NCBI GenBank assembly: GCA_964473325.1
Contig: CAYYOG010000001.1
Location: forward strand, 52,618-116,617
Length of the DNA: 64,000 nt
Direction of reading: 5' to 3'
From: an uncultured Thermotogae bacterium
Lineage (GTDB): Bacteria; Bipolaricaulota; Bipolaricaulia; RBG-16-55-9; DRXL01
This document shows positions 9,203 to 59,406 of this stretch, piece after piece. Both the position numbers and the translations under genes were made by a program. Below the pieces are notes generated by a model. It saw only the letters and a list, made by a program, of their open reading frames with translations. It did no database searches and was not told where the DNA came from. Within the stretch, counting starts at the first letter, position 1, and each line of letters opens with the position of its first letter.

Positions 9203-9220
9203 TTCTGTGCCTGCCGTGAT

Positions 9221-9916
9221 TCAAATTAGTACCAATTCTCGCAAATCACGCACCACTCTATCCGGCTTGACCTCCAAACTCCCCGCGGGCAAACTGTTTC
9301 TGTTCACCCAAACCATTTGCATTCCCACGCTCTTTGCTCCCGCGATGTCGTAAATTGGCGAGTCCCCAACGTAGAGCGCCTCGCTCGGCGAGATCTTCGC
9401 CAGCCCCAACGCCTGGCGAAAGATCGCTGGATCGGGCTTGGCTACCCCAACTTCCCCTGAAATAACTATGGGATCGAAGTCGCGCTCCAGATCGAAAAGC
9501 TTTAATTTATATCGCTGTAAGTCGCTCGGCCCGTTGCTGATCATCCCCAAGCGAAATCGCCTGCGCAGCGCCGCAAGCACTTCTCTCACTTCGGGGAAGA
9601 GCTTCAGATGGCTTACCCATGTCCGATAGTACGCTTGGCTCACCTGCGTCGCAAACTCTCTGTCATCTATGCCCAGCTTTTTCAAGATGCGATACGACCC
9701 CTCGCGCAACAATTCTGCCCCGGAGTTGGGCGAGTTTAGCCATAAGTCGTGCATCTCGGCCTTGACTTCTTCGGAAGCTCTGCGCCAAGCTTCCCAATCG
9801 AGCTGCGGGTACTTCTGTGTCGCGACGCGAAAGCTCGCCTCGACCGCCGGAGGCCGACAGCCCGATGTGTCTAAAAGAGTCTCATCTAGATCAAAGAAGA
9901 TCGCTTTGAGCTTCAA
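9221..9916 (-). CDS. HAD-superfamily hydrolase (subfamily IA-like)
   Basis: N-terminal FFDLDETLLD (HAD motif I) and C-terminal VGDSPIYDIAGAKSVG (motif IV). Confidence 0.7.
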   Translation of the reverse strand: MKLKAIFFDLDETLLDTSGCRPPAVEASFRVATQKYPQLDWEAWRRASEEVKAEMHDLWLNSPNSGAELLREGSYRILKKLGIDDREFATQVSQAYYRTWVSHLKLFPEVREVLAALRRRFRLGMISNGPSDLQRYKLKLFDLERDFDPIVISGEVGVAKPDPAIFRQALGLAKISPSEALYVGDSPIYDIAGAKSVGMQMVWVNRNSLPAGSLEVKPDRVVRDLRELVLI

Positions 9917-11442
9917 TGCTTAAAGTGTCGCACCCCCGTCACGACCATCTTGATCTTATGCTGTCTTGCAACTGCAAACGCCTCTTCGTCGCGCACAGAC
10001 CCCCCAGGCTGAATGATCGCTGCAATCCCATATTGCGCAGCTAACTCTACGGTGTCGGGGAACGGGAAGAACCCGTCAGAAGCGAGCACCGCACCGCGAG
10101 ATTGCTCGCCCGCTTGCGCTAGAGCGATTTTGGCCGAGCCAACTCGGTTCGTCTGCCCCGCGCCGATCCCTAAAGTCGTCTCATTCTTAGCCACGACAAT
10201 CGCGTTGGACTTGACATGCTTACACACTGTAAATGCAAAGATCAGATCGCGCTTCTCCACCTCTGAGAGCTTCGCATCATCGAGCACCTTCCAGCTGCTC
10301 TCTTGAATGACGACACTATCTGTATCTTGGAGAAGCAGATCGCCGGAGAGAAAGCGCAGTGTCTCCTTGGGGAAAGTAAGATTTTTGTAGCGCAAGAGCC
10401 GACGGTCTTTCTTCTGCTGTAAGATGGGCAGCGCGTCAAGTGCAAACTCCGGCGCAACGACGATCTCTAGAAAGATCTCATTAAGCTTTTCCGCGAGCTT
10501 TTTATCCACAGTTTGGTTGAGCGCGACGATCCCGCCGAACGCTGAGACGGGGTCGCATTCGAGGGCGCGCTCATAGGCTTCTAAAAGCGTCGTGCCGCGC
10601 GCGACTCCGCAGGGGTTATTGTGCTTAATGATCACGCATGCTGGGGATGCCAGCTCGCTCAACAGCGATAATGCAGACTCAGTGTCGAGCCAATTGTTAT
10701 ACGAGAGTTCTTTCCCCCACAAGACTTCGATCTGTGCCGACAGCCCCGGCGCAAGCGCGTTCTGATAGAGCGCAGCTCGTTGATGGGGGTTCTCGCCATA
10801 GCGCAGCTCGTGCGCTTTTGTGTACGCTAAGAAGAGTTTTTCTGCTGAAAGATTCCATCGCTCCTGGAGCGTTCGGTAGATCGCGATGTCGAGCTCAGCG
10901 ACTTTCGCAAACGCTTTGAGTGCCAAGCGTCGCTTGGTCATCTCCGAGACGTTCCCGCGACGCAGCTCCGCCAAAACGCTCACATAGTCTGATGGATCAG
11001 TCAGCACGATGACGTGCTGAAAATTTTTTGCTGCGGCGCGGACAAGAGACGGCCCACCGATGTCGATCTCTTCAATGAGCTGGGCTTCTGAGAGATTGGG
11101 CTTCTTCGCAGCTTCCATGAACGGATAGAAATTGACGCAGACTAAATCTATCTTTTCAATCGCTTGCGCTGTGAGATCGCTCTGATGTTTTGGATCATCT
11201 CTGAGGGCGAGAATTCCCCCGAAGATCTTGGGGTGGAGCGTCTTGACGCGCCCGCTCAAGATTTCAGGGAACCCTGTCACAGATTCGATGGGCGTGACGG
11301 GGATCTTGCGCTCGTGCAAGAACTTGGCCGTGCCCCCTGTGGAGATGATCTCCCAGCCCAACTCCACAAGACCACGGGCAAACTCGTCTAGATTCGTCTT
11401 ATCGCTGACGGAAAGCAATGCTCTGGGTTTCATAGGGATCAC
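9913..11442 (-). CDS. purH: bifunctional AICAR transformylase / IMP cyclohydrolase PurH
   Basis: MGS-like N-terminal domain (ALLSVSDKTNL...GGTAKFL) plus the AICARFT domain. ~509 aa. Confidence 0.9.
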   Translation of the reverse strand: MIPMKPRALLSVSDKTNLDEFARGLVELGWEIISTGGTAKFLHERKIPVTPIESVTGFPEILSGRVKTLHPKIFGGILALRDDPKHQSDLTAQAIEKIDLVCVNFYPFMEAAKKPNLSEAQLIEEIDIGGPSLVRAAAKNFQHVIVLTDPSDYVSVLAELRRGNVSEMTKRRLALKAFAKVAELDIAIYRTLQERWNLSAEKLFLAYTKAHELRYGENPHQRAALYQNALAPGLSAQIEVLWGKELSYNNWLDTESALSLLSELASPACVIIKHNNPCGVARGTTLLEAYERALECDPVSAFGGIVALNQTVDKKLAEKLNEIFLEIVVAPEFALDALPILQQKKDRRLLRYKNLTFPKETLRFLSGDLLLQDTDSVVIQESSWKVLDDAKLSEVEKRDLIFAFTVCKHVKSNAIVVAKNETTLGIGAGQTNRVGSAKIALAQAGEQSRGAVLASDGFFPFPDTVELAAQYGIAAIIQPGGSVRDEEAFAVARQHKIKMVVTGVRHFKH

Positions 11443-11480
11443 AGTTTAGCTTACCCAAAGTCGGCGCGCTCTGTCAAAGT

Positions 11481-12395
11481 GTGTATAATAAAAAAATGCG
11501 TGCGTTTGATATTGTCGGCTGTGGAGCGCTCAATCTCGACGAGCTCTATCGCGTCGCGCGCCTGCTCGATGACGACGAGGGCGAGGTCGTCTTCGCCGGA
11601 GCCTATCCCGGAGGTTCAGCAGCCAACACTATTTATGCTCTGGCGCAGCTTGGGCTGCACGCGGGCTTTCTCGGTGCTGTTGGTGGTGACGACGCCGGGA
11701 GAATGCTCGTGGAGAGCTTTAAGAGTGTTGGCGTGGACACGTCGGGGATTGTCATCAAGCCCAAGGCCAAGACCGGGCGCGCTTTGGGCTTTATAGATCC
11801 CCACGGGCGACGCACGCTCTACATTGAGCCGGGAGCGAATAGTCTCTTACGCAAAGCCGATATAGACTTTAGCTATGTGGCGCGCACGAAGTTCGTCCAT
11901 CTGTCGTCGTTTGTAGGAGCGGAGCAATGGGCGATTCAGCGTGAGCTGGTGCGCGCGCTCTCCCCAAAGACTCTAGTCAGTTTTGCGCCGGGGGCGCTCT
12001 TGGCGCGGCGGGGGCTGCAGGCGCTCTCCTCCGTGCTCAAGAGAACTCACGTGCTCTTTCTCAATCGTCGCGAGCTGGAGATCTTAGTGCACACAGACGA
12101 TCCCGAAATGGGGGTGCGTTCGTTGCTCAAGGCCGGTCCGCAGATCATCGCGGTGACACTTGGGGCCGAGGGCAGCTATGTCGCTGACGAAAAGCAGGCT
12201 TATAGAGTCGAAGCGCTACGGGTGAGAAGAATCGTTGACACAACTGGTGCGGGAGACGCGTTCGCTGCGGGCTTTCTCTACGGGCTCTTTGAAGAGCGCG
12301 AGCTGTGTGCATGCGCCAAGCTTGGGGCACAACTGGCACGGCACGCTGTGGGCCAGATGGGAGGACGGCTGAATCTCAAAACCCCGCGATTATGA
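11481..12395 (+). CDS. PfkB-family carbohydrate/nucleoside kinase (ribokinase-like)
   Basis: GG motif (DIVGCGALNLD) and C-terminal DTTGAGDAF anion-hole motif. A TATAAT lies 7 nt before the ATG, which may indicate a leaderless transcript. Confidence 0.7.
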   Translation: MYNKKMRAFDIVGCGALNLDELYRVARLLDDDEGEVVFAGAYPGGSAANTIYALAQLGLHAGFLGAVGGDDAGRMLVESFKSVGVDTSGIVIKPKAKTGRALGFIDPHGRRTLYIEPGANSLLRKADIDFSYVARTKFVHLSSFVGAEQWAIQRELVRALSPKTLVSFAPGALLARRGLQALSSVLKRTHVLFLNRRELEILVHTDDPEMGVRSLLKAGPQIIAVTLGAEGSYVADEKQAYRVEALRVRRIVDTTGAGDAFAAGFLYGLFEERELCACAKLGAQLARHAVGQMGGRLNLKTPRL

Positions 12396-12486
12396 AAGAG
12401 CAGACAAGATGTGCCATCTGGCAGTCGAGTGGGAGCGCGCGGGGAATGGCCCTTGCTCAAGGAGGCTGCTAAAGACGGGATAGCCT

Positions 12487-26716: not shown

Positions 26717-29700
26717 TCAACTGTAGGCCTCAGAGAGGATTTGACGATGCAAGGGGATTGCTAAGAAGCTTTGGCGCAGGGAGGGGTCGGTAATTTGGTG
26801 CGCGATCTTCTGTAACTCTTCGTAAGCTTGGCGCAACGCTTCAAAGGCATTTGGATCATGAAGCGCAGCCAGGGCACGGTAGCGTAGATAATGGGCACGG
26901 ATCGTGAGCTCACCACCCCAACCGTGCTGCTTAATTAGTGCTAGGGCGTGCTGAATTACCTCGAGGGCGGCGTGCGTGTCTTGCCCCATATCCAGCAAGG
27001 TGTGGGCAAGTTCCACAAGGCATGCTCCCTCTTCTGCGTGGGCGTGTATGGACCGTGCCTGCTCTAAAGCCTTATGCACGTGCCTGAGAGCATGTTCATG
27101 CTGGCCGAGGTCCCGATAGACGACCCCGATCCATCGCTGCATCATGCATTGGCCGAAGGGATCTTCTAATTCAAAAAAGATCTTATAGGCTTCCATACTA
27201 AGTTCGAGGGCCTTGGCAGGAAGGCCGAGCAGTCGGTATGTTTGAGCGAGGTTGCACAGACTGTATCCCAAGCCGTGGCGATCGCCATGGGTTTTATCGA
27301 GAGCGCAAGCTTGCTCAAGATACTCGCGAGCACGCTCGTATCTCCCAAGATATCGGAGGGTAGCTCCTATATTATTTAAGACTGCACCGGCTTTCTGCAG
27401 GTCCTGAAGCTCTTGATAGAGTCGTAATGCCATCTCATAGTGTGTGAGTGCCTGCTGATAATCCCCGAGCTTCATCAAGGCGTTTGCGCAGTCGTTCCAC
27501 GTATAAGCGGCTTTGAGCGGGTCGCGAGGGCGAAAGATTTCTAGGGCTTGACGATAGTAGTGCAACGCTTCTTGATATTCACCTCGATAGAACGAGATCA
27601 GTCCTATCTGGCTAAAAAGATTTGCCCTCACAAGCAAATCCGGAGGGTCTAACTCCAACGCCCGCTGGGCATAGCGCAGAGCTTCCTCATAGCGCGCTGT
27701 GCGCACAAGCCATTGGCCTTTCCAATGAAGTGCCTGAGCTTTCTTATTGAGATCGAGCTTTTCGGCAAGCAGGAGCAATCTCTCGCAACTCTCTTGAGCG
27801 GCCTCGGCTTGCCCACTCCGCAATTGGAAGTCGAGGCGCTCCAGTATGAGAGAGAACTCTTGCTCCGTGCGCTCCCGTTCGTTCAGCTGCCCCTTAAGCC
27901 TCTGGAGTAAGAGCAATCCACGCGCGACATACTGCAGGCCCTCCTCTATGTGATAGTGCTTTCCACACTCGCTGATCGCTTTAAGCACCCATTCTAATGA
28001 GCGTCTCAGCTGCCCACCCTGCTCATAGTGCTGCGCTAACTGTCCCGCCAACCCTACTGCAGCCGGATCGGCATAGACCCGCTCGATCGCGTGCGCAAGA
28101 CGCCGATGCAGCCAAGTCCGCCGCGGCCCCTCAAGAGACTTGTACACGACCTCCCGGAATTTGTCGTGCATGAACTCGTACCGCCCCTCACGCTCCACCA
28201 GCAATCCCTGCGCTGTCAATTCGGCAAGATGCACAAACAGCTCCTCGGGAGTCCCTTCCCATACAGCTTCTAACACCCCCAACTCGATCTGCACTGCACA
28301 CGCAATCACCTGTAAGACCCTCTGCGCTGCCGCGCTCACCCTCTTCGCCCGGCGCTCCAGAAGCTGGACCGCTGATGGGGCCAGCACGACCCGCGATGGG
28401 TCGGTCACCCGCCAGCGAGTCCCTTCCCGCACACACGCGCCGTTCTCAAAGAGGGCCTGCAGCACAGCCGTGGCAAAGAGCGGATTGCCCGCGCTCTCGC
28501 GATGGAGCCGTCCCCCAAAATCTGCTGTTGTCTCGAGTTCGTCAGCGAGACCCTTGACGAGATCGTGAATCTCGTGCTCGCTCAAACGCTGGAGAACGAT
28601 CTCACTGAGCCGCCCCATGCGCACCCCCTGATGGCGAACCCGCTCCAGCTGGGTACTCAGCTCTTCGGATCGCGCTGCTCCCACAATTAAGAGAGGCTCA
28701 TTGGTGAATCGCTCCATAAGATAGCAGAGAAAATCGAGCGAGTTGCTATCAGCCCACTGGAGATCGTCCACAAAGAGCAAGAGCGGGAGATGGCGCAGAG
28801 CCAACGCTTTGAGAATGCGCCAGAGCGTCTCGAAGAGCCGGTACTGGCGATGCTCACGCGGGAGCGCCATCTGAGGCAGATCGGGGATCAAGGGAGTGAG
28901 CTCCGGCAAAAGTTCCGAGAGTTCCGCCACCCATGCGGGCGGCACCTCGGCAAGATCAGCGCGGGTCAATTGCGAAACCCCCTGGCGCAAGACCTCGACC
29001 CACAGATGCAACGGCATCGGGTTCTGCAGCTCATAACAGCGTCCATAGAGAGCTTGTGCTCCCGCGTGCTCGTGCGCCCAGCGCAAAAATTCCTCTCCAA
29101 GACGCGTCTTGCCCATACCTGCCTCGCCCAGAATGAGCACGAGGTGCCCTGCGCCGGAACGAGCTTTGCTCAAAGCCGAAGAGAGTTGCTCCCATTCGCG
29201 AGTCCGCCCCACAAACGGCGGGCGCTGGATCTTCATAGGGAGCGCAATCCCCTCAGGCACACCCTTGGGGTAGAATCGCTCCCAATCGCAAACCCTCTCA
29301 GATTGGATCTGCCTAAAAATCTCTTCCGTCTGGGACGACGGGCGCTCCCCCAGCTCCCGGTCCAATGCTGTACGACAGCGCTCATACGCCCGATGCGCCA
29401 CGGCCCGCTCCCCGGCACAGGACGCATAGACCATCATCTGGCGATAGAGCTTCTCGTCCAGGGGGGATTCGACCACAGCGCGTTCGAGATAGCTCAGCGC
29501 TGCGCGATACTGCCCACGCCGCGCCAGGGAGTCCGCTAACAAACTTAAGACTTCAACAAAGCGCTCCCGGAAGCGCTCTCGCACCGGCAACGCCCACTCC
29601 TCATAGCGATCTTCTGTCAAGTACTCCCCACGATAGAGCGCCACAGCGCTCTCAAACGCAGCGCTCGCTTCGTCAAATTTCCCTTCGCGGTAGGCGCGGC

Positions 29701-30058
29701 GCCCACGCTCTTCACATTGAGAGAACTCTTCAGTATCTATCCAGCAGTCGCTCTCGGCACCCAACACATAGCCCCCGCGTCGTGTAAGAATATACTGGGA
29801 CTGCTCCCCACGCTCAAGCTGGGGCTCTAAGATCTTTCTCAGCTCTGCGACACGATTGCGCAGGTTCGATGCAGCGCTGCGGAGATTACTCTCTTCGGGC
29901 CATAAGTACTCAATCAGCTCATCAGCAGAGAAGACCCGGCCGCGCTCGCTCGCGAGAATTTTGAATAGTGCTTGGGTCTTAGCATTCTTCCAGAGCTGGG
30001 GCCCAAGCAGCTCCTCGTCGCGATAGACAGCAAATCTCCCAAAGCAGAAGATTTTTAC
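26717..30058 (-). CDS. SARP/AfsR-like regulator: winged-helix DNA-binding domain + BTAD + AAA ATPase + TPR repeats (5' end uncertain)
   Basis: The reading frame is open upstream of the tracked GTG start at 29767. It encodes an OmpR-type winged helix (VKIFCFGRFAVYRDEELLGPQLW ... LIEYLWPEE ... YILTRRGGYVL), then BTAD, a Walker A motif (LILGEAGMGKTRLGEEF) and many TPRs. No canonical start codon sits at the winged-helix N-terminus, and the repeat at 30068-30137 abuts it. Confidence 0.6.
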   Translation of the reverse strand, partial: VKIFCFGRFAVYRDEELLGPQLWKNAKTQALFKILASERGRVFSADELIEYLWPEESNLRSAASNLRNRVAELRKILEPQLERGEQSQYILTRRGGYVLGAESDCWIDTEEFSQCEERGRRAYREGKFDEASAAFESAVALYRGEYLTEDRYEEWALPVRERFRERFVEVLSLLADSLARRGQYRAALSYLERAVVESPLDEKLYRQMMVYASCAGERAVAHRAYERCRTALDRELGERPSSQTEEIFRQIQSERVCDWERFYPKGVPEGIALPMKIQRPPFVGRTREWEQLSSALSKARSGAGHLVLILGEAGMGKTRLGEEFLRWAHEHAGAQALYGRCYELQNPMPLHLWVEVLRQGVSQLTRADLAEVPPAWVAELSELLPELTPLIPDLPQMALPREHRQYRLFETLWRILKALALRHLPLLLFVDDLQWADSNSLDFLCYLMERFTNEPLLIVGAARSEELSTQLERVRHQGVRMGRLSEIVLQRLSEHEIHDLVKGLADELETTADFGGRLHRESAGNPLFATAVLQALFENGACVREGTRWRVTDPSRVVLAPSAVQLLERRAKRVSAAAQRVLQVIACAVQIELGVLEAVWEGTPEELFVHLAELTAQGLLVEREGRYEFMHDKFREVVYKSLEGPRRTWLHRRLAHAIERVYADPAAVGLAGQLAQHYEQGGQLRRSLEWVLKAISECGKHYHIEEGLQYVARGLLLLQRLKGQLNERERTEQEFSLILERLDFQLRSGQAEAAQESCERLLLLAEKLDLNKKAQALHWKGQWLVRTARYEEALRYAQRALELDPPDLLVRANLFSQIGLISFYRGEYQEALHYYRQALEIFRPRDPLKAAYTWNDCANALMKLGDYQQALTHYEMALRLYQELQDLQKAGAVLNNIGATLRYLGRYERAREYLEQACALDKTHGDRHGLGYSLCNLAQTYRLLGLPAKALELSMEAYKIFFELEDPFGQCMMQRWIGVVYRDLGQHEHALRHVHKALEQARSIHAHAEEGACLVELAHTLLDMGQDTHAALEVIQHALALIKQHGWGGELTIRAHYLRYRALAALHDPNAFEALRQAYEELQKIAHQITDPSLRQSFLAIPLHRQILSEAYS

Positions 30059-31216: not shown

Positions 31217-32785
31217 TCAGACTTTCTTTTCGCCCTTCTTCTCCTCTTCAGACTTGATGCCCAGCTTGCCCAACAGCCCACTAATATCTAATCCGAGGGC
31301 CTGGGCCGCTTGCATCACGTTGAACATCATTGTCGGGACAGTGTTCGCAAGACGATTGAGGGTATTGGCCCCATCAGGAGAGCCACTGTCGAGCATCACG
31401 AGCTTATCGATATTGCCCAATGGGGCAGCCACCGCTCCGGCCACCGGTGCAAAGGCTTTGATGACATCAGGCAGCCGCTCTAAGATGAGCATCGTCTTGG
31501 CAGATTCGTCGAGCTTGGCAAATGCCTCGGCCTTCTTGAGCGCGCCTTCGGCTTCAGCGAGCAACTTGGCCTTGACGCCATCAGCTTCGGCGAGGAGTTT
31601 CGCTTTCGTCCCCTCGGCCTCGGCCAAGAGCTTGGCTTTGGTGCCCTCGGCTTCCGCTAAGAGCTTGGCGCGCATCGCGTCGGCCTCGCCGATGCCCTCC
31701 ATCGCTAATCGCTGTTTCTCGGCGTCAGCGATGACGATAATCGCCGTCTTGCGGCCTTCGGCTTCTAAAATCTCTTTCTGCTTGGTGGCTTCGGCTTGGA
31801 GAATAATTTGCTGCCTCTGAGCTTCGGCAGGCTTAATGACTTCAGCGAGCAGTTGACGCTCTCGACGAATAGCTTCGGCCTCGGCAACTTCTGTCTGCTT
31901 CTTTGTACGCACGAGATCGACTTGGACCTCCTGCTCAACGACCTGCTGGCGCGCCACGGCTTCAGCGAGGGGGCCAGCTTGGCGTGCACGCGCTTGCTGC
32001 GCTTGGACTTCAGCCTCATACTGAGCTTTCTTGACGTCACGCTCCTTCTCAGCTTGGGCGATGAGCGCCAGATTCTCGTTCTCGCGCTCTTTTGCTTCGC
32101 GCAGGGCTGTGCTCGACTTAATAATCGCTTCGCGCTCGGCTTCGGCCTCGCCGATGCGGGCATCGCGCTTCACTTCAGCTGTGCGCTTCTTGCCCAACGC
32201 TTCGATATAGCCTTCGGAGTCCCAGATCTTTTGAATCGTTAAGACGTCGACCCCAAGGCCGATCTTGGCTAAGTCCGCTGCAGCTTCCATCAAGACTTCT
32301 TGATTGAACTTGGCCCGATCCCGCACGATCTCCTCTACTGTCAGCCGCCCGATGATCGAGCGCAGATGGCCCTCTAGGTTCTTATACGCGATCTGCTTGA
32401 CCTCCTCCAAGCTGCGTCCCAAGAAACGCTCCGCGGCCGCAATGAGAGACTGCTCGTCGTTGCGAATCTTGACGTTGGCTACCGCCTGGGCGCTCACTAA
32501 GACCCCGTCTTTGTTAGGCATGTCCCGCACTTCAAGATCAATGGGGAAGATCGTCAAATCCAAGTACGTGACGTTCTCGACGACAGGCCATTTGAGGGCA
32601 GCACCACCGGTCACCAGCCGAAACCCGATGACCTTCCCGTCGGGCGTGCGGTGCTTGCGCCCGTAAAACACAGCGACTTTGTTCGGCGGCACTTTAATAT
32701 AATTGCGCACCGCGGTCATCACGACCACGAGCACGATCAACGCGATCAGCACCAACAAGAACGGCAGCGTCGTGAACCCGAACAT
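31217..32785 (-). CDS. flotillin / SPFH (band 7) domain protein
   Basis: N-terminal TM helix, SPFH domain, long EA-rich coiled coil, and four tandem KLLAEAEGTKA repeats near the C-terminus. Confidence 0.8.
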   Translation of the reverse strand: MFGFTTLPFLLVLIALIVLVVVMTAVRNYIKVPPNKVAVFYGRKHRTPDGKVIGFRLVTGGAALKWPVVENVTYLDLTIFPIDLEVRDMPNKDGVLVSAQAVANVKIRNDEQSLIAAAERFLGRSLEEVKQIAYKNLEGHLRSIIGRLTVEEIVRDRAKFNQEVLMEAAADLAKIGLGVDVLTIQKIWDSEGYIEALGKKRTAEVKRDARIGEAEAEREAIIKSSTALREAKERENENLALIAQAEKERDVKKAQYEAEVQAQQARARQAGPLAEAVARQQVVEQEVQVDLVRTKKQTEVAEAEAIRRERQLLAEVIKPAEAQRQQIILQAEATKQKEILEAEGRKTAIIVIADAEKQRLAMEGIGEADAMRAKLLAEAEGTKAKLLAEAEGTKAKLLAEADGVKAKLLAEAEGALKKAEAFAKLDESAKTMLILERLPDVIKAFAPVAGAVAAPLGNIDKLVMLDSGSPDGANTLNRLANTVPTMMFNVMQAAQALGLDISGLLGKLGIKSEEEKKGEKKV

Positions 32786-32804
32786 AGTTCGTTCCCTCCT
32801 TCGG

Positions 32805-33311
32805 TTACACAGTCTCTACGAGCACGACATCCCCTTGAACTTCAGTGATGCGCACGATGGTCCCTTCTGGGATTGCTTGATGGGTTTTGGAGCGCGCCAG
32901 CCGCCGGGTCACTTGAGCCTTAACAGTGCAGCTGACTTCTCCTAAGCCCTCAGCGGGGATAGCGACCGTGACCCGCCCCGTCAGCCCCACTAAATCTTTA
33001 CTTTCAATGAGCGAGCTGGCTTCTTGCGAGCGCACCAGATTCATAGCTAATACATAGATGCCGCTCATCGCTGCCCCGGCGAGCACACCCCACAGCGAGC
33101 TGAGCATCGCCGAAAGATTATAATATCGTGCGATAGCCCCCACAGTTCCAAATGCTGTCAGAAAGACAGCAATCGAGCGCAAACTCAAGAAATGTGGCCC
33201 ACCTCCCTCAACTTCGGGAGCGGCTTCGATATCATCTCCAAAGACCCCAAAGAACGCCGAGATGAGCAAGAGCACCAGCCCGATCACTGCCAAGATGATG
33301 AAGACTACCAT
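32805..33311 (-). CDS. NfeD-family membrane protein (flotillin partner)
   Basis: Start refined to MVVFIILAVIGLVLLL. TM helices plus a C-terminal OB-fold-like soluble domain (VTRRLARSKTHQAIPEGTIVRITEVQGDVVLVE). Immediately upstream of flotillin. Confidence 0.55.
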   Translation of the reverse strand: MVVFIILAVIGLVLLLISAFFGVFGDDIEAAPEVEGGGPHFLSLRSIAVFLTAFGTVGAIARYYNLSAMLSSLWGVLAGAAMSGIYVLAMNLVRSQEASSLIESKDLVGLTGRVTVAIPAEGLGEVSCTVKAQVTRRLARSKTHQAIPEGTIVRITEVQGDVVLVETV

Positions 33312-33640
33312 CTGCACCCACTCCCTGCTTATTGTACATGCTTTGCCAAGGCTTCCAACACAGGGATAGTACCAGATTGAGAGAGGAGCGGGCAAGTCTT
33401 CGCTAAAAAGAAAGGCACGGGGTGATGGGAGGAGCACCACCCCGTTCAGCGTAGTGGGAGGAGGGGGGCGACCCCTTCAGAGCCGCTGGGGAAAAATCCC
33501 CGCTCCCGGAGGCAAGGAACGGGGCAAAACCCTGGCGGCCGATGCGAACCGCATGCCGGGGTCGCCTCGTCCAAATGAGGAGGTTATCTAGCCCACCAGC
33601 TAACTCTATTATACTATACCCGTGAGCCCTTTGGAAAGTT

Positions 33641-40636: not shown

Positions 40637-40666
40637 TTGACAGCCTAAAATTGTGTAATCTATAAT
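40637..40666 (+). promoter_or_regulatory. perfect-consensus promoter TTGACA-N18-TATAAT for the SLH/Ompα-like gene
   Basis: TTGACA at 40637-40642 and TATAAT at 40661-40666. A GAGGAGG RBS follows. Confidence 0.55.
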
Positions 40667-41419: not shown

Positions 41420-41449
41420 TTGACAACAAGGGTGAGGGTATGCTATAAT
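41420..41449 (+). promoter_or_regulatory. perfect-consensus promoter TTGACA-N18-TATAAT for the three-paralog operon
   Basis: TTGACA at 41420-41425 and TATAAT at 41444-41449. The spacer GGGTGAGGG resembles a repeat arm. A ~130-nt leader follows. Confidence 0.55.
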
Positions 41450-41583
41450 ACAGCCGCTTAAAAAACGACCCTCATAAGGAGGTGATCGCCAGACTGGGGG
41501 AACACCGCCAAAAACACACCAACTGCAGAGTCGTGCGTTCGTGCGTACGCCACAAAACCGAGTAAAAAAGGAGGTTTCTGTAC

Positions 41584-43122
41584 ATGTTTAGAAGATTACT
41601 CGCTCTGACCTGTGCGCTCGCCTTTGTTGGAGCGCTGGCGTGGGGAGCGAACGCTGCTCCAATCAGCGGAAGCTTCGGCATCGACATCGTCTTCTATCCT
41701 CAGGGTCCTGTCATCAACAAGGTCGACCTCATCGACATGAAGTTTGAGGCCGATCTGATTCTCACTCTCTCAATCAGCGGCTTGGAAATCACCAGCACCA
41801 CGGTCTTCACCTTCCTTGGCGCTGAGTTCCAATCGTTCGTGATCAGCGCCACGCTGGGTGCTCTGACCATTAAAGACACGATCATCTTCTCCCCGACGTT
41901 CTTCGAGTTCGAGGAGACGCGTGATCAATATGGTCGCAAGCGCTGGTGCTTGCAACTCTCACTGCCGGCATTCCCAGCGACTCATACGTCAAGGTGCCAA
42001 TTCCCAGCTGTCATCAGCGGCTACATTGCTGATCCGGTCTTTGGGAATGTCGAGTTCTATTCGATCTTCCGCGGGCTCTTGCATCCGCTCGTCCAGAACT
42101 TAGTGCTGGCGCGCTGGCTCGATCCGACGAATGCGTTGAACAACATCATTCGGTTCCGCAAGAAGATCGCCGATCTGAGCCTCAACATCGCCGGGATGGT
42201 CCTCAACGTCAAGGCGCTCTTCGCTAACGTCAGCCCCAGCCCGACCGGCTACTTGCTGCGCAGCGGCTTGGTCCTGGCGATGGAGGGCAAGACCGTGAGC
42301 GGCGTGGGCGTGCGCGGCGAGCTGTGGCTGGGCGCCAAGCAGGGTCTGGAGTGCTTCGGCGAGTGCAAACCGATTGAGCGCTTCTTCAACCAGATGCTCA
42401 CCGGCGATGGGTTCAATAACGTAGAGGAAGAGAAGATCTTCCTGAACAACCTCGTGATCGCCGGGGTGCGCCATGACTTCTACGCCGAGTTCCACTTCGA
42501 TTTCACGCAGTGCCACATCGACCAGGTCGATGAGGACAACGACGGCTGGTTCTACCCCTATGACACAACGGGCGATGCGATGACCATCATCAGCCCGCTG
42601 TGCTTCATGTCGTTGACCCAGACGTACACCTTCACGCCGTGGAGGCTCAGCGTCCAGTCGATCTGGAACTGGAACGGCAACTTCGACCTGATCAGCAACA
42701 CCACAAGCACCCAGATGAAGGCCGGCGACATATCCGTGTTGGCGTACTTCGTCTGGCGCAACAACGGCCAGTGGTCCTTCGGTGGGCCAGCCCTGAGCGA
42801 GTTCATCATGACGTTCGATCCGCCTGGGCTGCAGGTGACGAGCGACATCACCTTCTGCACCGACCCGGTCTACTGCTTGGCTGCCTGGGGTGGTGGCCCC
42901 AACATACCGCCCGTGATTGCTCACTACCTGAGCATCAGCGGCACGGTCGGCCCGGTGAGCGTCGCCGCGTTGTTGATCTTCAATGGCGGCATTTTGGGCG
43001 AGTTCGCCGAGTTTGACGTGGAAATCGGTTTCGCGTTCGAGCCGGTCGCCGTGACCTTCTCTGCGATCCTGTTGGCCGATATGCTTGGTGGCATCGCTGT
43101 CAGCATGAACACCAAGTTCTAA
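41584..43122 (+). CDS. secreted putative outer-membrane beta-barrel protein, paralog 1 (Ompβ-like, uncharacterised family)
   Basis: AAAAAGGAGGTT RBS. Signal peptide MFRRLLALTCALAFVGALAWGANA. Alternating hydrophobic strands. Invariant LECFGECKP motif. Ends ...MNTKF (terminal Phe). Confidence 0.55.
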   Translation: MFRRLLALTCALAFVGALAWGANAAPISGSFGIDIVFYPQGPVINKVDLIDMKFEADLILTLSISGLEITSTTVFTFLGAEFQSFVISATLGALTIKDTIIFSPTFFEFEETRDQYGRKRWCLQLSLPAFPATHTSRCQFPAVISGYIADPVFGNVEFYSIFRGLLHPLVQNLVLARWLDPTNALNNIIRFRKKIADLSLNIAGMVLNVKALFANVSPSPTGYLLRSGLVLAMEGKTVSGVGVRGELWLGAKQGLECFGECKPIERFFNQMLTGDGFNNVEEEKIFLNNLVIAGVRHDFYAEFHFDFTQCHIDQVDEDNDGWFYPYDTTGDAMTIISPLCFMSLTQTYTFTPWRLSVQSIWNWNGNFDLISNTTSTQMKAGDISVLAYFVWRNNGQWSFGGPALSEFIMTFDPPGLQVTSDITFCTDPVYCLAAWGGGPNIPPVIAHYLSISGTVGPVSVAALLIFNGGILGEFAEFDVEIGFAFEPVAVTFSAILLADMLGGIAVSMNTKF

Positions 43123-43161
43123 CGGGCGAGCGTGTAAAACCAGAAAAAGGAGGTTCAGTCA

Positions 43162-44832
43162 ATGTTTAGAAGAATCACAGTTCTGGCCTGTGCAGTGGCG
43201 TTGCTGACTGGAGCCCTCTCTTGGACAGCAGCGGCGGCCCCGATCACGGGCAGTTTCAGCTTCGACATCGTCTTCTACCCGGAGCAGGCATGCACCGTTG
43301 ATCTTACTACTGGGGAAATCATCTGCGAAGATCCGATCAACAAGATTGACCGGATCCTGGTCAAGTTCGAGGCCGATCTGTTGCTGACGATGTCGATCAG
43401 CGGGCTCGAGATGACCAGCAGCACGTCGTTCACATTCAAGGGCATTGAGACCCAGCTCTTCTGGGTCAAGGCGACCGCGGGCGCGATGGTCTTCGAGACC
43501 GCGATGGTCTTCGCTCCCAACATCATGGAGTTCGAGGAAGTCCGCTCCGGCGCTGGCACCCGCTACTATTGTCTCAACCGCTCCGCGCCCGATAACTACG
43601 GCGTGTCATATCTGAATAGCTGCGCCTATGGCTCGAGCGCGGGCATCCTTGACCCGGTCTTCGGCTATTACACCTTTGGCGACATGCTCATCCTGGGTGG
43701 TGTGCATCCAGGGCTTGCGAACGTGATCGTTGGCCGCTGGGCCGACGGCCAGTTTGACGCTTGGCACACCCCCACGCCGAATGTGCCCGGCTCGATGCTC
43801 GATCAGCCGCTGACCTTCCGCAAGAAGGCCGCGGAAGTGACGCTCTCGATCGCCGGGTTGACGCTGGGCCTGCGCGGGCTGTTCGCCAACTTCGGCACGC
43901 CCGATGCGCCGAGCTTCACCGTTGGCACGGTGCTCGTCCTTGAGGGCACGACGGTCAGCGGCATCAAGGTGCGCAGCGAGACCTGGGTCGGCGCACGGCA
44001 GGGCTTCGAGTGCTTCGGCGAGTGCAAGCCCAACCAGCGCCTGGGCACTCAGGGCGGCTTCATCTTCGTGCCCTATCCGGCCACCGGCGGCATCGTCGTC
44101 CCTGGCTTCATGCCTGAAGAGGAGAAGCTCTATATCACCGGGCTGAAGCTGGCGGGCCTCACGCACGCCATCGTAGTGGAGATGCAGCTTGCCGGCGCTG
44201 GCGCCAGCTCGCTCCAGCCGACCTTCGTGGCGATCCAGACGTCCACGCCGCGCATCACCCCGCTGGGGATCACCGTGACGAACATCGTGCGGTTTACCGC
44301 AGGCTTGACGTTCGTGCGCGATCAGATCTGGTTCAGCGCCTCCTTCGGCGAGGCCGCGGGCTTCATCCGCTGGGACTTCCGCCCGGCCGCCCTCGGCGCG
44401 ATGGAGGCTCTGTTCAGGCAGTTCTATGCGGAGTTCGACGCGCCGGGCGCTAAGGCCTCGATCATGTTACTCACCTGCGATCCCAATGAGTACGGCGGCG
44501 TCCCTGGACGGTGCTACTGGGGCAACTACCTAGGCCTCGGTACGCCTAACCCGTTCCTCGATGTTTACTACGACCTGCTCTTCGAGGTCGGGGACCTGAC
44601 CGTGTACGTCTACGCGGAAATGATCGGGAGCCTGCTGAAGGACCTGTACGCCGCCGGGATTCAGGCCGAGTGGACGATCGGGCCGGTGACCATTGCCAGC
44701 CACACGGAGTTCCGCAACCTCCAGGCGGAGCGAAACTCGTGGAACCTTGGGTCTGGGTTCGGCGTTGATGCCTTCGACGGCACCAGGATCGAGCTGGCAA
44801 TCCAGCAGTTCACCGTTGAGATCAAGTTCTAA
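43162..44832 (+). CDS. secreted putative outer-membrane beta-barrel protein, paralog 2
   Basis: Same RBS and signal peptide (MFRRITVLACAVALL). FECFGECKP motif. Extra Cys-pair insertion (CTVDLTTGEIIC). Ends ...EIKF. Confidence 0.55.
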   Translation: MFRRITVLACAVALLTGALSWTAAAAPITGSFSFDIVFYPEQACTVDLTTGEIICEDPINKIDRILVKFEADLLLTMSISGLEMTSSTSFTFKGIETQLFWVKATAGAMVFETAMVFAPNIMEFEEVRSGAGTRYYCLNRSAPDNYGVSYLNSCAYGSSAGILDPVFGYYTFGDMLILGGVHPGLANVIVGRWADGQFDAWHTPTPNVPGSMLDQPLTFRKKAAEVTLSIAGLTLGLRGLFANFGTPDAPSFTVGTVLVLEGTTVSGIKVRSETWVGARQGFECFGECKPNQRLGTQGGFIFVPYPATGGIVVPGFMPEEEKLYITGLKLAGLTHAIVVEMQLAGAGASSLQPTFVAIQTSTPRITPLGITVTNIVRFTAGLTFVRDQIWFSASFGEAAGFIRWDFRPAALGAMEALFRQFYAEFDAPGAKASIMLLTCDPNEYGGVPGRCYWGNYLGLGTPNPFLDVYYDLLFEVGDLTVYVYAEMIGSLLKDLYAAGIQAEWTIGPVTIASHTEFRNLQAERNSWNLGSGFGVDAFDGTRIELAIQQFTVEIKF

Positions 44833-44874
44833 GGTGAGCACGTGAGAAAAACCGAGAAAAAGGAGGTTCTGTCA

Positions 44875-46332
44875 ATGTTTAGAAGACTCATGGTAATCCT
44901 GGCGGCCCTGGCTGTAACCGCAGCGGGCTGGAGCCTTCCCGCCCACGCCGCTCCGGTCAGTGGCTCCGCAACGTTAGATATCGTCTTCACCCCTGCGCTT
45001 TATTACGCGACGACCGGTACGAAGATCGACAAGATCCGCGTCAAGCTGGAGATGGACCTGATCCTGACCCTCTCCATCAGTGGCGTGGACATCACCAGCC
45101 AGTCGGTCTTCACCTTCCGCGGGCTGGAGTATCAATCGTTCGTCTTCACCGGGACGATCGGCGCTCTGGTGGTGCGCTCGCAGTTCATCTTCGCGCCCAA
45201 CATTCTTGAGATCCGCGCGGTGCGCGACGACCTTGGACTGCCAGCGTATTGTGTAGCGCTGGCCAATCCGACCATAGTGTCACCGACTCCGCCGGTTCTT
45301 CCTTTCAATTGGAATTGTGGCACGCCGGTGGACGCGGGCGAGCACACGCTCTACCTGTGGATCGAGGGCGCCGATCTGTACCTGACCACCGTCATGTACC
45401 TGCACCCGGCGCTGCGCAACTGGCTCCTGGCCACCTATATGGAGCTGCAGGCCACTGATCCACTCGGCCAGCCGCTGAGCTTCCGCAAGAAGACCGTGGA
45501 CTTGGCCCTGTCCTTGGCAGGGTTGACCATCGGCCTGCGCGGCATGTTCGGCAACGTTGGCTCGGTGACAACCCCCAGCTGGCGCATGGGCATTGTGGCC
45601 AGCGTCGAGGGCCAGACGGTCAGCGGCATCACCATCCGCGGCGAGAGCTGGCTCGGCGCGCGCCAGGGCTTGCAGTGCTTCGCCGAGTGTAAGCCCCTGG
45701 AGATCGTGCGCGGCGGCATGCTCCCCGATGCCCCGTTCACCTTCTACGAGGAGAAGCTCTTCATCCGCAACCTCAAGCTCGCCGGGGTCACATGGGATGC
45801 CCGCTTGGAGTTTGAGTTCGCCGAGGCCCCCGCAGGGCTGCGCTTCGTCGAGCTGACCCAGAGATTCCGGCTCGATCCGTTCCGGCTCGAGGTCACTAAC
45901 ACCCTCAATATCGTCGGGGCCAATCTCACGCTGGCTTCGGACGTCTTCGTGACGAGCTTGAAGGTCGGCGATATCGCGATGACCGTGGTCGGCTACATCT
46001 GGCCGGCGATCACCGGCGCGTTCAATCTGTATTGGAGCCGGGTGATCTCGGTCTTCGATCCGCCGGGCATGAAGGTCATCAGCGACATCCAGTTCTGCAA
46101 TGAGGAGCTCTACTGCACTAGCGCGCTCTTCTTCCATGACCTCGTGCTCATGGGGACCGTCGGCGACATGACGATCAACATCGGCATCCGCCTGTCGAGC
46201 ATCCTCACCGGCTTCGTTGGTGCGACCATCGAGATGAGCTGGAAGATGGGCAGCGCCCTGCTCAAGAGCGCCACGCTCCTGACCACCGACAGGCTCCAGG
46301 CCCAGATGTTCTCCATCACCTTCACGTTCTAG
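44875..46332 (+). CDS. secreted putative outer-membrane beta-barrel protein, paralog 3
   Basis: Start refined to MFRRLMVILAALAV, which sits after an RBS identical to the other two. LQCFAECKP motif. Ends ...ITFTF. Confidence 0.55.
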   Translation: MFRRLMVILAALAVTAAGWSLPAHAAPVSGSATLDIVFTPALYYATTGTKIDKIRVKLEMDLILTLSISGVDITSQSVFTFRGLEYQSFVFTGTIGALVVRSQFIFAPNILEIRAVRDDLGLPAYCVALANPTIVSPTPPVLPFNWNCGTPVDAGEHTLYLWIEGADLYLTTVMYLHPALRNWLLATYMELQATDPLGQPLSFRKKTVDLALSLAGLTIGLRGMFGNVGSVTTPSWRMGIVASVEGQTVSGITIRGESWLGARQGLQCFAECKPLEIVRGGMLPDAPFTFYEEKLFIRNLKLAGVTWDARLEFEFAEAPAGLRFVELTQRFRLDPFRLEVTNTLNIVGANLTLASDVFVTSLKVGDIAMTVVGYIWPAITGAFNLYWSRVISVFDPPGMKVISDIQFCNEELYCTSALFFHDLVLMGTVGDMTINIGIRLSSILTGFVGATIEMSWKMGSALLKSATLLTTDRLQAQMFSITFTF

Positions 46333-46351: not shown

Positions 46352-46396
46352 GGCCCGGCCCTGGGGGGATACCCCCGGGGCCGGTTCGTTTTTCTG
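46352..46396 (+). terminator. rho-independent terminator ending the three-paralog operon
   Basis: 13-bp GC stem (GGCCCGGCCCUGGGGG / CCCCCGGGGCCGG), 4-nt loop, then TTCGTTTTTCT. Confidence 0.7.
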
Positions 46397-46476: not shown

Positions 46477-47031
46477 ATGCGGCGCATACTGTTAGCCCTG
46501 CTGGTCGGTCTCGTCGTGGTCTTTCTCAGCGTCCAGGCCCAGACCATCTCAACTCATGAGATCGTCAAAGTGCTCTCGGCCCAAGGCGACGTGACGTCTT
46601 CGGATCTACAAGCGGCCCTCGGCCAATGGCAGCTCGAACTCTTCAATCTCCCTCATAAGACCGACTTCTTTCAAGCTCAGTATATCGTAGATGCCGACGA
46701 GAACGGGAAATTCGAGATCGGCGTTGACCCGGTCTACACGATCATGGGGTATCCGCGTCTGGCTACCGCCCGAACGACGGTCTTTTGTAACGTTCCGATG
46801 CCCTTCGTTGAGATCCGTATCCATGTCTTAGCTGATTTTGAAGTCGCACTCAACGGGCAAGCCCAGGGCATAAAGCAGTTTGGCACGATCCTCTTTCTGT
46901 CGACGGGAGACGTGCGCGGCCCATGGATCATGGTGCTCTCCGTCGACCTAGATAACGACGGGACTTCGGAGGGCGTGATGGGGATCTCGACACGATTCGC
47001 GGTGCCGATCATTCCCCCGCAGTGTCCATGA
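46477..47031 (+). CDS. small secreted hypothetical protein
   Basis: AAGGAGG RBS. Signal peptide MRRILLALLVGLVVVFLSVQAQT. ~184 aa with no recognisable family. Immediately downstream of the envelope operon. Confidence 0.45.
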   Translation: MRRILLALLVGLVVVFLSVQAQTISTHEIVKVLSAQGDVTSSDLQAALGQWQLELFNLPHKTDFFQAQYIVDADENGKFEIGVDPVYTIMGYPRLATARTTVFCNVPMPFVEIRIHVLADFEVALNGQAQGIKQFGTILFLSTGDVRGPWIMVLSVDLDNDGTSEGVMGISTRFAVPIIPPQCP

Positions 47032-57789: not shown

Positions 57790-59406
57790 ATGGCAACCAA
57801 AGGTCGGAAGATCGGGGTACTAATCGGGTGTGCTCTGCTTGCTCTTTTGATAGCTTCAAGCAAGGGGGGTACTCAAGATTTTTGTACTCTAACCGTGAAC
57901 AGGACCGGGAGCGGGACAGTTACAAGCACTCCTCCAGGGATCAATTGTGGCACAGATTGTACGGGAATATACTTCTGTGGAATTACTGTGCAGCTAACGG
58001 CTACGGCCGCATCGGGTTGGACCTTGAGTGGTTGGAGTGGCTGCGACTCAGCCTCAGGTAATCAGTGTACAGTGATAATGAATATCAACCGCACTGTTAC
58101 GGTAACATTCTCAGCGGCGACATTCACGCTCACTGTGACGAAATCCGGCGCTGGAAGCGGCACAGTAACAAGTAGCCCCGCGGGGATCAACTGTGGCGCG
58201 GATTGCTCAGAGAGCTACTCTTCAGGCACAACAGTAAGGCTAACAGCCACAGCAGCTTCGGGCTCGATCTTCACTGGTTGGAGTGGGGCCTGCAGTGGTA
58301 CGGCGGCCACGTGCGATGTTCTTATGAACGCTGACAAATCAGTCACCGCAACCTTCGCGCAAGCCTTCACTCTCACTGTGACCAAAACTGGTACTGGAAG
58401 CGGTACTGTAACCAGCAATGACGGTAAGATCAACTGCGGCACCACATGCACCGCGAGCTATGCTGTCACTACTCCTCCTGCTACGGTAACCTTGACAGCT
58501 ACTGCGGACTCTGGATCAACTTTCAGAGGCTGGAGCGGGGCTTGCAGTGGTAGGGGTACTTGTTCAATTACTATGGATGCCAACAGATCCGTCACGGCTA
58601 CTTTTGCACTTAGGGGCGGTGGGACTGTCCCTGGCGCTGGTTGTCAAAATGATAACGTTGAAGGAGCTTCTCAGGACGATATTATTCAGATGTGTGATAC
58701 AGCGAGCGATAACTTAACTATTCGTGGGGATGGCAATGGAGTTTTCGACGACGGACCAGATCGATGTTCGTCATCACGATGTGGCGATGACCTGATCATA
58801 GGGAGTGGTGACGATGACCAAATTTATGGGGATGACAGTTTTGGCGGCTGGCGCACTAGCGGTCGAGATGTCATCTACGGGAGAATGGGCAACGACACTA
58901 TCTATGGCGAGTCAGGCAACGACACCATCTATGGCGGCAATGATGATGATGTGATTGACGGAGGCAATGGTAATGACCATCTCGAAGGTGAGGAGGGGAA
59001 TGATCTATTGCAAGGCGGTCCTGGCCGAGATGTTCTCCTTGGTGGATTAGGCGATGATGAGCTATATGGTGGTTCCGGCAACGATATACTGCGCGGCAAC
59101 GATGGCATCGACACCCTCGACGGCGGCACCGGCAACGATATCATTGAGGGCGGCTTGGACTCAGATTTTCTCGTTGGCGGTGGCGGGAATGATGTCTTCA
59201 TTGTGCGATCAGGCGATGCCGGGGATGACATCGAGACAATCATTTGCACCCAAGCGCACAACGAGAAGGGAAGAGTTATCTTCATCGGTGAATTCCCTGA
59301 CTTGCTACTTGGGCGTTTCCGCAACACTATCCTAACTATCCAAGATACTTCGGGAAGCTTTGAAATCATCACCGGTCCAGGGATCTGCGTCATCAGTCGA
59401 AGGTAA
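57790..59406 (+). CDS. secreted protein with four InlB-B-repeat-like domains and a C-terminal RTX-type calcium-binding repeat block
   Basis: Signal peptide. Four ~85-aa repeats (TVxxxGSGTVTSxPxGINCGxDC ... TATAASGxxFTGWSGAC ... VTATF). Then GGxGxDxxx nonapeptides (GESGNDTIYGGNDDDVIDGGNGNDHLEG ...). Confidence 0.65.
   Translation: MATKGRKIGVLIGCALLALLIASSKGGTQDFCTLTVNRTGSGTVTSTPPGINCGTDCTGIYFCGITVQLTATAASGWTLSGWSGCDSASGNQCTVIMNINRTVTVTFSAATFTLTVTKSGAGSGTVTSSPAGINCGADCSESYSSGTTVRLTATAASGSIFTGWSGACSGTAATCDVLMNADKSVTATFAQAFTLTVTKTGTGSGTVTSNDGKINCGTTCTASYAVTTPPATVTLTATADSGSTFRGWSGACSGRGTCSITMDANRSVTATFALRGGGTVPGAGCQNDNVEGASQDDIIQMCDTASDNLTIRGDGNGVFDDGPDRCSSSRCGDDLIIGSGDDDQIYGDDSFGGWRTSGRDVIYGRMGNDTIYGESGNDTIYGGNDDDVIDGGNGNDHLEGEEGNDLLQGGPGRDVLLGGLGDDELYGGSGNDILRGNDGIDTLDGGTGNDIIEGGLDSDFLVGGGGNDVFIVRSGDAGDDIETIICTQAHNEKGRVIFIGEFPDLLLGRFRNTILTIQDTSGSFEIITGPGICVISRR

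Follow-up and report, generated by a model that had tools for sequence, protein, structure and literature searches.

Three predicted 24-stranded outer-membrane barrels behind an Ompα-like tether gene in a conserved operon of Bipolaricaulota: candidate proteins of the toga

The window analysed here is a stretch of 64,000 nucleotides (nt) from an uncultured Thermotogae bacterium, placed by its GTDB lineage in the Bipolaricaulota (assembly GCA_964473325.1, contig CAYYOG010000001.1, positions 52,618 to 116,617), and the subject of this work is a set of three consecutive open reading frames (ORFs) on one strand of it, named P1, P2 and P3, together with the S-layer homology (SLH) gene in front of them. 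P1 (41584-43122, +) encodes a protein of 512 amino acids (aa) with the C-terminus ...NTKF and P2 (43162-44832, +) one of 556 aa, both predicted to be 24-stranded outer-membrane β-barrels, with longer loops L4, L6, L10 and L12 in P2. P3 (44875-46332, +) encodes 485 aa with three Cys pairs. An earlier description of this DNA (the sequence-only reading) gave the same lengths for P1 and P2, but its 496 aa for P3 has to be shortened to 485, because that figure counts from an upstream in-frame GTG (44842, where the ORF list begins), whereas the conserved ATG, which starts MFRR and sits after the same Shine-Dalgarno region as in P1 and P2, lies at 44875. Its proposal that the three neighbours are paralogs with a set of common features is confirmed by alignment, the proteins being 33-39% identical to one another (33-35% by BLASTP; 38-39% to P1 by MAFFT) and their coding DNA 60-77% identical in pairs. 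The three share a DLILTLSISG block, and invariant among them are MFRR, A-A-P-x-x-G-S, SISG, FRKK, TVSG, C-F-(G/A)-E-C-K-P, EEK, DPPG and a terminal F.

The cysteine motif is located at 42352-42372 (+) in P1 (aa 257-263), where the long strand β11 passes into loop L6, at 44011-44031 (+) in P2 (aa 284-290) and, in the form CFAECKP, at 45676-45696 (+) in P3 (aa 268-274). The motif, in the form C[FW][GAS]ECKP, is carried by 118 of 120 database homologs and a terminal F by 113 of the 120, and positions 1, 3, 5 and 7 from the C-terminus are mostly hydrophobic. The C-x3-C spacing is conserved as described earlier, but it is one of three or four Cys pairs within loops and not the sole pair: P1 has C122/C138, C257/C261, C310/C340 and C425/C431, each within a single predicted loop, P2 has C44/C55, C137/C154, C284/C288 and C439/C451, and P3 has C126/C148, C268/C272 and C408/C414. 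The extra pair noticed earlier in paralog 2, CTVDLTTGEIIC, is present as C44/C55 and is predicted to form a stapled hairpin in loop L1. Moreover, the number of Cys is even in 96% of 98 mature homologs, and the pairing of Cys within loops points to disulfides that would staple the loops.

Structural prediction places these proteins among the large barrels. The AlphaFold2 (AF2) models, built with a 103-sequence alignment, are all-β with 24 long strands both for P1 (predicted local distance difference test, pLDDT, 86.4; predicted TM-score, pTM, 0.80) and for P2 (pLDDT 82.9; pTM 0.82), and in the P1 model the mature chain opens directly with strand β1 at residue 27. Foldseek searches put the largest barrels known at the head of the list: LptD (26 strands) is top by E-value, whereas by query-normalised TM-score the FimD/PapC ushers (24 strands) lead with 0.40-0.43, and the sequence identity to the barrel neighbours is 7-11%. 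In the models the fold class, a large membrane barrel, is clear, and the features expected of a BAM-dependent barrel, namely a Sec signal peptide, an even strand number (24) and a C-terminal β-signal ending in Phe, are all present. The secreted, porin-like character put forward before is thereby upheld by signal peptides and by outer-membrane barrels predicted with AF2 and Foldseek, and that P1-P3 are outer-membrane barrels can be held with high confidence. Scanned against Pfam and NCBIfam, the three barrels gave no match at E <= 1, porin-family profiles included, and 24 strands are predicted, not 16-18; a profile search of PDB sequences with the barrel family likewise found no match. Neither Plug nor TonB_dep_Rec of Pfam matches the barrels, which have no TonB box and no periplasmic domain, and the SLH model of Pfam matches none of them, just as the SLH protein is without a barrel.

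When the N-terminus is placed in the periplasm and the 24 strands are joined by turns and loops in alternation, seven of the turns predicted to be periplasmic (SG, GA, AG, TVSG, AG, GD, DPPG) have an entropy of at most 0.5 bit and zero indels, and all indels are confined to the loops in between, predicted to be external, where the mean number of inserted residues is 6.7 for L1, 12.5 for L4, 5.3 for L7 and 3.2 for L10. Such a distribution is the classical one for outer-membrane proteins, and a test that had been set beforehand as one able to refute the sequence-only reading does not refute it, since the variable regions and indels fall in predicted external loops, not in strands. Loop L4 is conserved, has 62 residues and contains a helix. 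Strand β11 is unusually long (17 residues), CFGECKP caps its end, and the invariant residues R244, E246, E260, K262 and E282-E283-K284 are found near the motif. P1 also holds an internal repeat, in which FRKKxxDLxLxIAG (β8 and turn T4, 42154-42198) resembles EEEKxFxxNLxxAG (β12 and turn T6, 42427-42467); counterparts exist in P2 and P3, and the repeat may have been left by a hairpin that was duplicated as the barrel evolved.

The gene upstream of P1 (40731-41408, +) encodes an Ompα-like tether of 225 aa, recognised by PF00395 (28.8 bits against a cut-off of 20.8) and by heptad and hydropathy analysis. It is composed of a signal peptide (residues 1-22), a Pro/Ser/Thr-rich linker (25-44), the SLH domain (47-89), heptad-repeat helices (about 109-140 and 147-186) and a hydrophobic C-terminal helix (205-225). 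Enrichment at heptad positions a and d is 0.4-0.7 over approximately residues 109-186, the terminal 21 residues have a mean Kyte-Doolittle hydropathy of 2.8, and many weak matches to coiled-coil families are found in Pfam. This is the architecture of Thermotoga Ompα with a much shorter stalk, and in every locus that keeps the upstream flank an ortholog of the tether gene stands directly upstream of P1.

The SLH gene has a σ70-type consensus promoter (40637-40666, +; TTGACA-18-TATAAT, 12/12), a second perfect promoter with an extended -10 TG (41420-41449, +; TTGACA-18-TATAAT, 12/12) serves the P1-P2-P3 unit, and the operon ends in an intrinsic terminator (46355-46394, +) with a 13-bp stem, 12 GC pairs and a T tract; no terminator of comparable strength lies between P1, P2 and P3. 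P1 has a long 5' untranslated region (UTR; 41450-41583, +), two blocks of which are conserved across metagenome-assembled genomes (MAGs). One block contains a perfect Shine-Dalgarno-like AAGGAGGTGATC (41476-41487) without a start codon at initiation distance, followed by GCCAGACTGGGGGAA (41476-41502 for both), and is kept in 10 MAGs. The AAGGAGGTGATC block resembles the "STAB-SD" elements that stabilise mRNA in Bacillus. Scanning 40.4-47.1 kb with Rfam gave nothing meaningful, and consensus folding of the P1 5' UTR reached -9 kcal/mol with zero compensatory pairs and no covariation.

The translation-initiation region of P1 (41554-41595, +) reads AAAACCGAGTAAAAAAGGAGGTTTCTGTAC ATG TTT AGA AGA, while that of P2 (43136-43173, +) is 90% identical over 42 nt to that of P3 (44847-44886, +), with which it is aligned. 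A common initiation region thus exists, as had been claimed, but it is not an identical leader of 22-24 nt, given the 90% between P2 and P3 and the two one-base insertions and few substitutions that set the P1 leader apart from both. The consensus of about 40 nt, AAAACCGAG(T)AAAAAGGAGGTT(T)CNGT(A)CA ATG TTT AGA AGA, is near-invariant in the three paralogs across 10 genomes and was not found at singleton paralogs. In the window the pattern AAAAAGGAGGTTNNGTNNATG occurs only before P2 and P3, it was matched in 0 of 100 shuffles, and the similarity of the leaders is far above chance and above the 60-77% of the coding DNA. The AGA codons at the start are retained though the genes are rich in GC at third codon positions (GC3). 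The initiation region is the strongest unexplained conservation of the locus, and it would be accounted for by selection for maximal, possibly matched, translation initiation, or by a shared regulator.

Codon usage agrees with these signals. P1-P3 have the strongest codon bias of the 48 ORFs in the window, with an effective number of codons (Nc) of 36.6-39.1 versus 41.9-58.4 for the rest and a GC3 of 0.82-0.86 versus 0.50-0.76, and their rate of synonymous substitution (dS) in the five closest comparisons, 0.37-0.71, is about half that of ClpB, IMPDH and PanB (~0.9-1.25). Promoters, a single strong terminator, codon bias and low dS fit proteins that would be very abundant. The next most codon-biased ORF is a SBP_bac_5 solute-binding gene (2343-4208; Nc 41.9); its product, too, is probably made in large amounts and located in the envelope or the periplasm. 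At the other end of the scale, GC3 reaches its minimum for the window (0.50), along with weak codon bias, in a gene at 57790-59406 whose secreted product combines InlB B-repeats with RTX (HemolysinCabind) repeats; this gene may have been horizontally acquired, and FG-GAP/PKD proteins and an S8 peptidase are encoded nearby.

The operon is old. The gene order ClpB / SLH-P1-P2-P3-184 aa / ClpP-Tig-PanE-PanB is syntenic in other MAGs, with the SLH-P1-P2-P3 array in at least 10 species-representative MAGs, and each paralog has its own ortholog group by BLASTP, a 1:1:1 orthology with which a neighbour-joining (NJ) tree agrees. To the most distant syntenic MAG the identity is 57% for P1, 52% for P2 and 48% for P3, against 33-42% between paralogs. 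The triplication is ancient because the orthology is 1:1:1, the order is kept and orthologs are closer than paralogs, and the divergence among the copies therefore reflects age, not recent diversification; a recent duplication was considered and rejected on the ortholog identities and the NJ tree. As to recombination between the copies, which had been raised for checking, no gene-conversion tracts were found between those in the window. Directly after the operon terminator lies a gene (46477-47031, +) for a small secreted protein of 184 aa with two Cys, syntenic in other Bipolaricaulota MAGs and without a Pfam or NCBIfam match at E <= 1; it may be an envelope partner, though its membership in the system is uncertain. 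Upstream, a large BTAD-AAA_16-TPR regulator and a flotillin (Band_7/Flot)/NfeD-like pair (26717-29767, 31217-33440) are encoded, which also occur in the syntenic MAG L001.

Outside the operon, typical genomes contain further singleton members of the family, in a P1-like clade, a clade of ~500 aa and a basal clade of 430-490 aa. The homologs all have a signal peptide and are multi-copy, and the single-copy cytoplasmic homologs that would have counted against a porin-like reading were not seen. The named ones come from MAGs of Candidatus Bipolaricaulota/Acetothermia, with a few records titled Fraserbacteria or Thermotogae. An exhaustive profile (hidden Markov model) search over 1.84 billion representative proteins returned just 147 matches at E <= 1e-3, all of them metagenome proteins. 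The weaker matches belong to a related β-barrel family of 390-470 aa with the pattern "ADVTGSF...F" (alignment A4), for which hhalign shows full-length homology (probability 100%, E 1.8e-39). Like P1-P3, its members have the N-terminal block, SG/GA/TxSG turns, a terminal F and several copies per genome; unlike them, they have neither the CFGECKP motif nor the long L4 loop, and their mature N-terminus is ADVTGSF. No SLH neighbour was present in the two loci of this related family that were examined, both at contig ends, and the GcvPB of one of its host genomes is nearest to Bipolaricaulia among named sequences (62-65%), which is a weak pointer to its origin.

In terms of evolutionary rate, P1-P3 stand out from their neighbours. 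Compared between the window and eight other MAGs and averaged over regions, the ratio of nonsynonymous (dN) to synonymous rates, dN/dS, is 0.14-0.45 for P1-P3, 0.03-0.12 for ClpB, ClpP, IMPDH and PanB, 0.07-0.15 for the SLH gene and 0.09-0.20 for the 184-aa protein, and the dN of P1-P3 is 2-4 times that of flanking genes. Within P1 and P3 loop dN is ~2x strand dN, P2 being mixed, and turn dN is zero or near zero in P1 and P2, P3 being the exception. A dN/dS above 1 is reached by none of the region classes, the maximum being 0.64 in the loops of one P2 pair, and part of the raised ratio arises because codon bias depresses dS. The evolution of the barrels is thus fast and loop-focused, and of the diversifying pressure that the sequence-only reading expected, the raised, loop-focused ratio is borne out while diversifying selection, with no ratio above 1, is not demonstrated. 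Identities of the three proteins are also incongruent for the same genome pairs (P1/P2/P3 92/81/92% for L007-L008 and 77/85/89% for L007-L013), and such incongruence was seen among the loci L007, L008, L013 and L001 versus the window, a hint that single barrel genes have recombined or that MAGs are chimeric.

The closest known system is that of Thermotoga maritima, where Ompα (TM0477) and Ompβ (TM0476) occur along with the toga pOMPs (Engel 1992; PMC3387000; PMC10160955). Its ompA-ompB operon has been described, with an OmpB that ends in F (Petrus 2012; PMC3387000), and its toga is built from sheets in which β-barrels are arranged as trimers, several pOMPs and three Ompα homologs being present (Sexton 2023; PMC10160955). 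By screening SLH proteins for neighbouring barrels, Witwinowski et al. (2021) came to report the split Ompα/Ompβ of the Thermotoga type in Bipolaricaulota and Fraserbacteria, with CsaB near Ompα/Ompβ in Bipolaricaulota. The split-tether kind is therefore already known for this phylum, and the word "uncharacterised" used in the sequence-only reading is right for the protein family itself but not for its kind. In 2025 a preprint reported the first pure culture of Bipolaricaulota, strain J31, the toga of which bears a hexagonal proteinaceous lattice with 6.25 nm spacing and through which the strain is reported to take up hexadecane. The locus resembles Thermotoga in that a gene with SLH, coiled-coil and C-terminal hydrophobic-helix parts lies directly upstream on the same strand, in that the barrels start with a signal peptide, end in a Phe-terminated β-signal and exist as several paralogs per genome, and in that the host phylum is a sister phylum that also has a toga.

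There are differences as well. The stalk of the tether has ~70-85 coiled-coil residues (~12-15 nm), as opposed to 316 residues (~50 nm) in T. maritima OmpA1, the barrels have 485-556 aa and 24 predicted strands as opposed to an OmpB of ~45 kDa, and an invariant CFGECKP with paired loop Cys contrasts with a Cys-poor OmpB (PMC3387000). Three barrels in one conserved operon with a common initiation region also set the locus apart from Thermotoga. The OmpM, SlpA and Mep45 proteins of diderm Terrabacteria fuse SLH and porin in one chain, whereas SLH stalk and barrel are separate polypeptides here and the barrels have 24 predicted strands and no Pfam match; OmpM has 16 strands and SlpA 30. FhuA and other TonB-dependent receptors, FimD/PapC and LptD have barrels of comparable size and give the best superpositions (TM 0.28-0.43), but P1-P3 differ from these large Proteobacterial barrels in lacking a plug, a TonB box and any usher or periplasmic domain, and the locus does not contain the partner genes. 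Not found described were the barrel family (no curated model; "hypothetical" where named), its 24-strand size, the conserved triple operon, the CFGECKP signature, the paired loop Cys and the common initiation region.

From the observed paralogy, predicted fold and topology, synteny, expression signals and rates, we infer localisation, channel function, disulfides and tethering, and the reading that we consider probable is that P1-P3 and the Ompα-like protein form the tether-plus-major-barrel system of the Bipolaricaulota toga, in which P1-P3, by analogy, may correspond functionally to Thermotoga Ompβ and the toga pOMPs. The barrels would be exported by Sec, with the signal peptide cut at AxA|AP, and inserted into the outer membrane by means of the C-terminal β-signal of alternating hydrophobic residues ending in Phe. 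The short, invariant, Gly-containing turns would then face the periplasm and the long, variable, Cys-stapled loops the outside, with C-F-G/A-E-C-K-P capping the extended β11 at the start of L6, beside the invariant acidic cluster. On the side of the tether, the SLH domain would bind the wall polymer, the coiled coil (~12-15 nm) would span the periplasm and the C-terminal helix would sit in the outer membrane, so that the barrel-rich outer layer would be tied to the wall. The barrels would most likely be both wide diffusion channels and the main structural protein of the outer layer.

Several observations weigh against this toga reading. Strand count, loop sidedness and motif position were read from DSSP strings and parity; TM-scores to solved barrels are low (0.28-0.43), with no close solved relative; and the likeness to TM0476 and the toga pOMPs is one of architecture. 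A 26-strand count, which would move CFGECKP to a periplasmic turn, was set aside as less likely, as it needs membrane strands of 3-5 residues and as P2 has almost no return strand behind the motif. The SLH gene has a promoter of its own, and a match to PS_pyruv_trans (CsaB) is absent among the ORFs Pfam-scanned at 26.7-37.9 kb and 50.6-64 kb of the window. In addition, a distant groundwater Acetothermia MAG (GCA_016179105.1; L004/L027) has a tandem triple without an SLH neighbour (JACOSB010000096.1, locus ~8000-12400), whose members are 49-53% identical to one another, arose independently and are without the conserved initiation region. The same MAG encodes at least six further family members, one of which adjoins giant CLIPPER/SdrD_B surface proteins.

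Other explanations have to be set beside the toga reading. That the copies and their variable loops are kept mainly by phage or predator pressure, as diversifying surface antigens or receptors, is rather doubtful, even though dN is 2-4x that of the flanking genes, dN/dS is 0.14-0.45 versus 0.03-0.18, the loops of P1 and P3 have about double the dN of the strands, every indel falls in a predicted external loop and the incongruent per-gene identities are compatible with recombination of single genes. No region class exceeds a dN/dS of 1 (maximum 0.64), the raised ratio comes in part from a dS depressed by codon bias, copies at 60-77% DNA identity show no recent gene-conversion tracts, the paralogs are ancient and each is kept as an ortholog group, and MAG chimerism could produce the same incongruence. 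Unlikely is an obligate 1:1:1 heterotrimer of P1, P2 and P3 that tiles the toga, for which the operon and the common initiation region would give equimolar synthesis and in which the initiation element and the upstream Shine-Dalgarno-like stabiliser may be a common target of post-transcriptional control. Gene order and 1:1:1 orthology have been kept since before the lineages diverged to 48-57% identity, ~40 nt at the start are near-invariant in three paralogs and 10 genomes though flanking dS is ~1, singleton paralogs are without this region, the independent tandem array of the distant MAG also has exactly three genes and the toga barrels of Thermotoga are trimers. The gene trees of P1, P2 and P3 are, however, mutually incongruent, which is not what tight co-evolution would suggest, other arrays of the family show one or two genes visible, and selection for maximal expression of each gene explains the common initiation region equally well. 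To our knowledge, a heteromeric porin lattice has not been described in bacteria; if the heterotrimer is real, it would mean such a lattice in the toga of Bipolaricaulota.

Two further explanations take the barrels out of a structural role or out of the membrane. It is quite improbable that they are substrate-specific transport or secretion barrels (TonB-dependent-like, usher/LptD-like or hydrocarbon channels) instead of structural porins. The best structural matches are indeed 22-strand TonB-dependent receptor barrels, followed by ushers and LptD, the helix-containing L4 could fold into the lumen and hexadecane uptake via the toga is reported for the cultured strain. At 7-11% identity and low TM-scores, however, these matches mirror nothing beyond the size of the barrel; a plug, a TonB box, an usher domain, an LptE-like partner and any Pfam/NCBIfam match are missing, the neighbours are the SLH tether and housekeeping genes, and such extreme expression signals suit porins or structural proteins made in bulk. 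That P1-P3 are non-membrane S-layer or sheath proteins, barrel-like in prediction alone, is very hard to credit: the toga of strain J31 does carry a hexagonal proteinaceous lattice and AF2 models are predictions, but two confident closed-barrel predictions, membrane barrels as top structural neighbours, the family-wide β-signal with C-terminal Phe and barrels without an SLH or other wall-anchoring domain argue against it.

For practice, the value of the locus lies in annotation, in the interpretation of lattices seen by cryo-electron tomography and in the choice of proteomics targets, and not in a new principle. The signature ECF[GA]ECKP finds the family in metagenomes, the locus defines an unannotated barrel superfamily without a Pfam, NCBIfam or PDB match, and the initiation region, near-constant across paralogs that have diverged to ~35% protein identity, is an unusually clean case of its kind. 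The locus supplies candidate toga-building proteins, very probably abundant, in the form of a short Ompα-like tether and three predicted 24-stranded barrels. Both Bipolaricaulota and Thermotogota branch deeply and figure in the debates on the origin of the outer membrane and on how it was tethered before Lpp and Pal.

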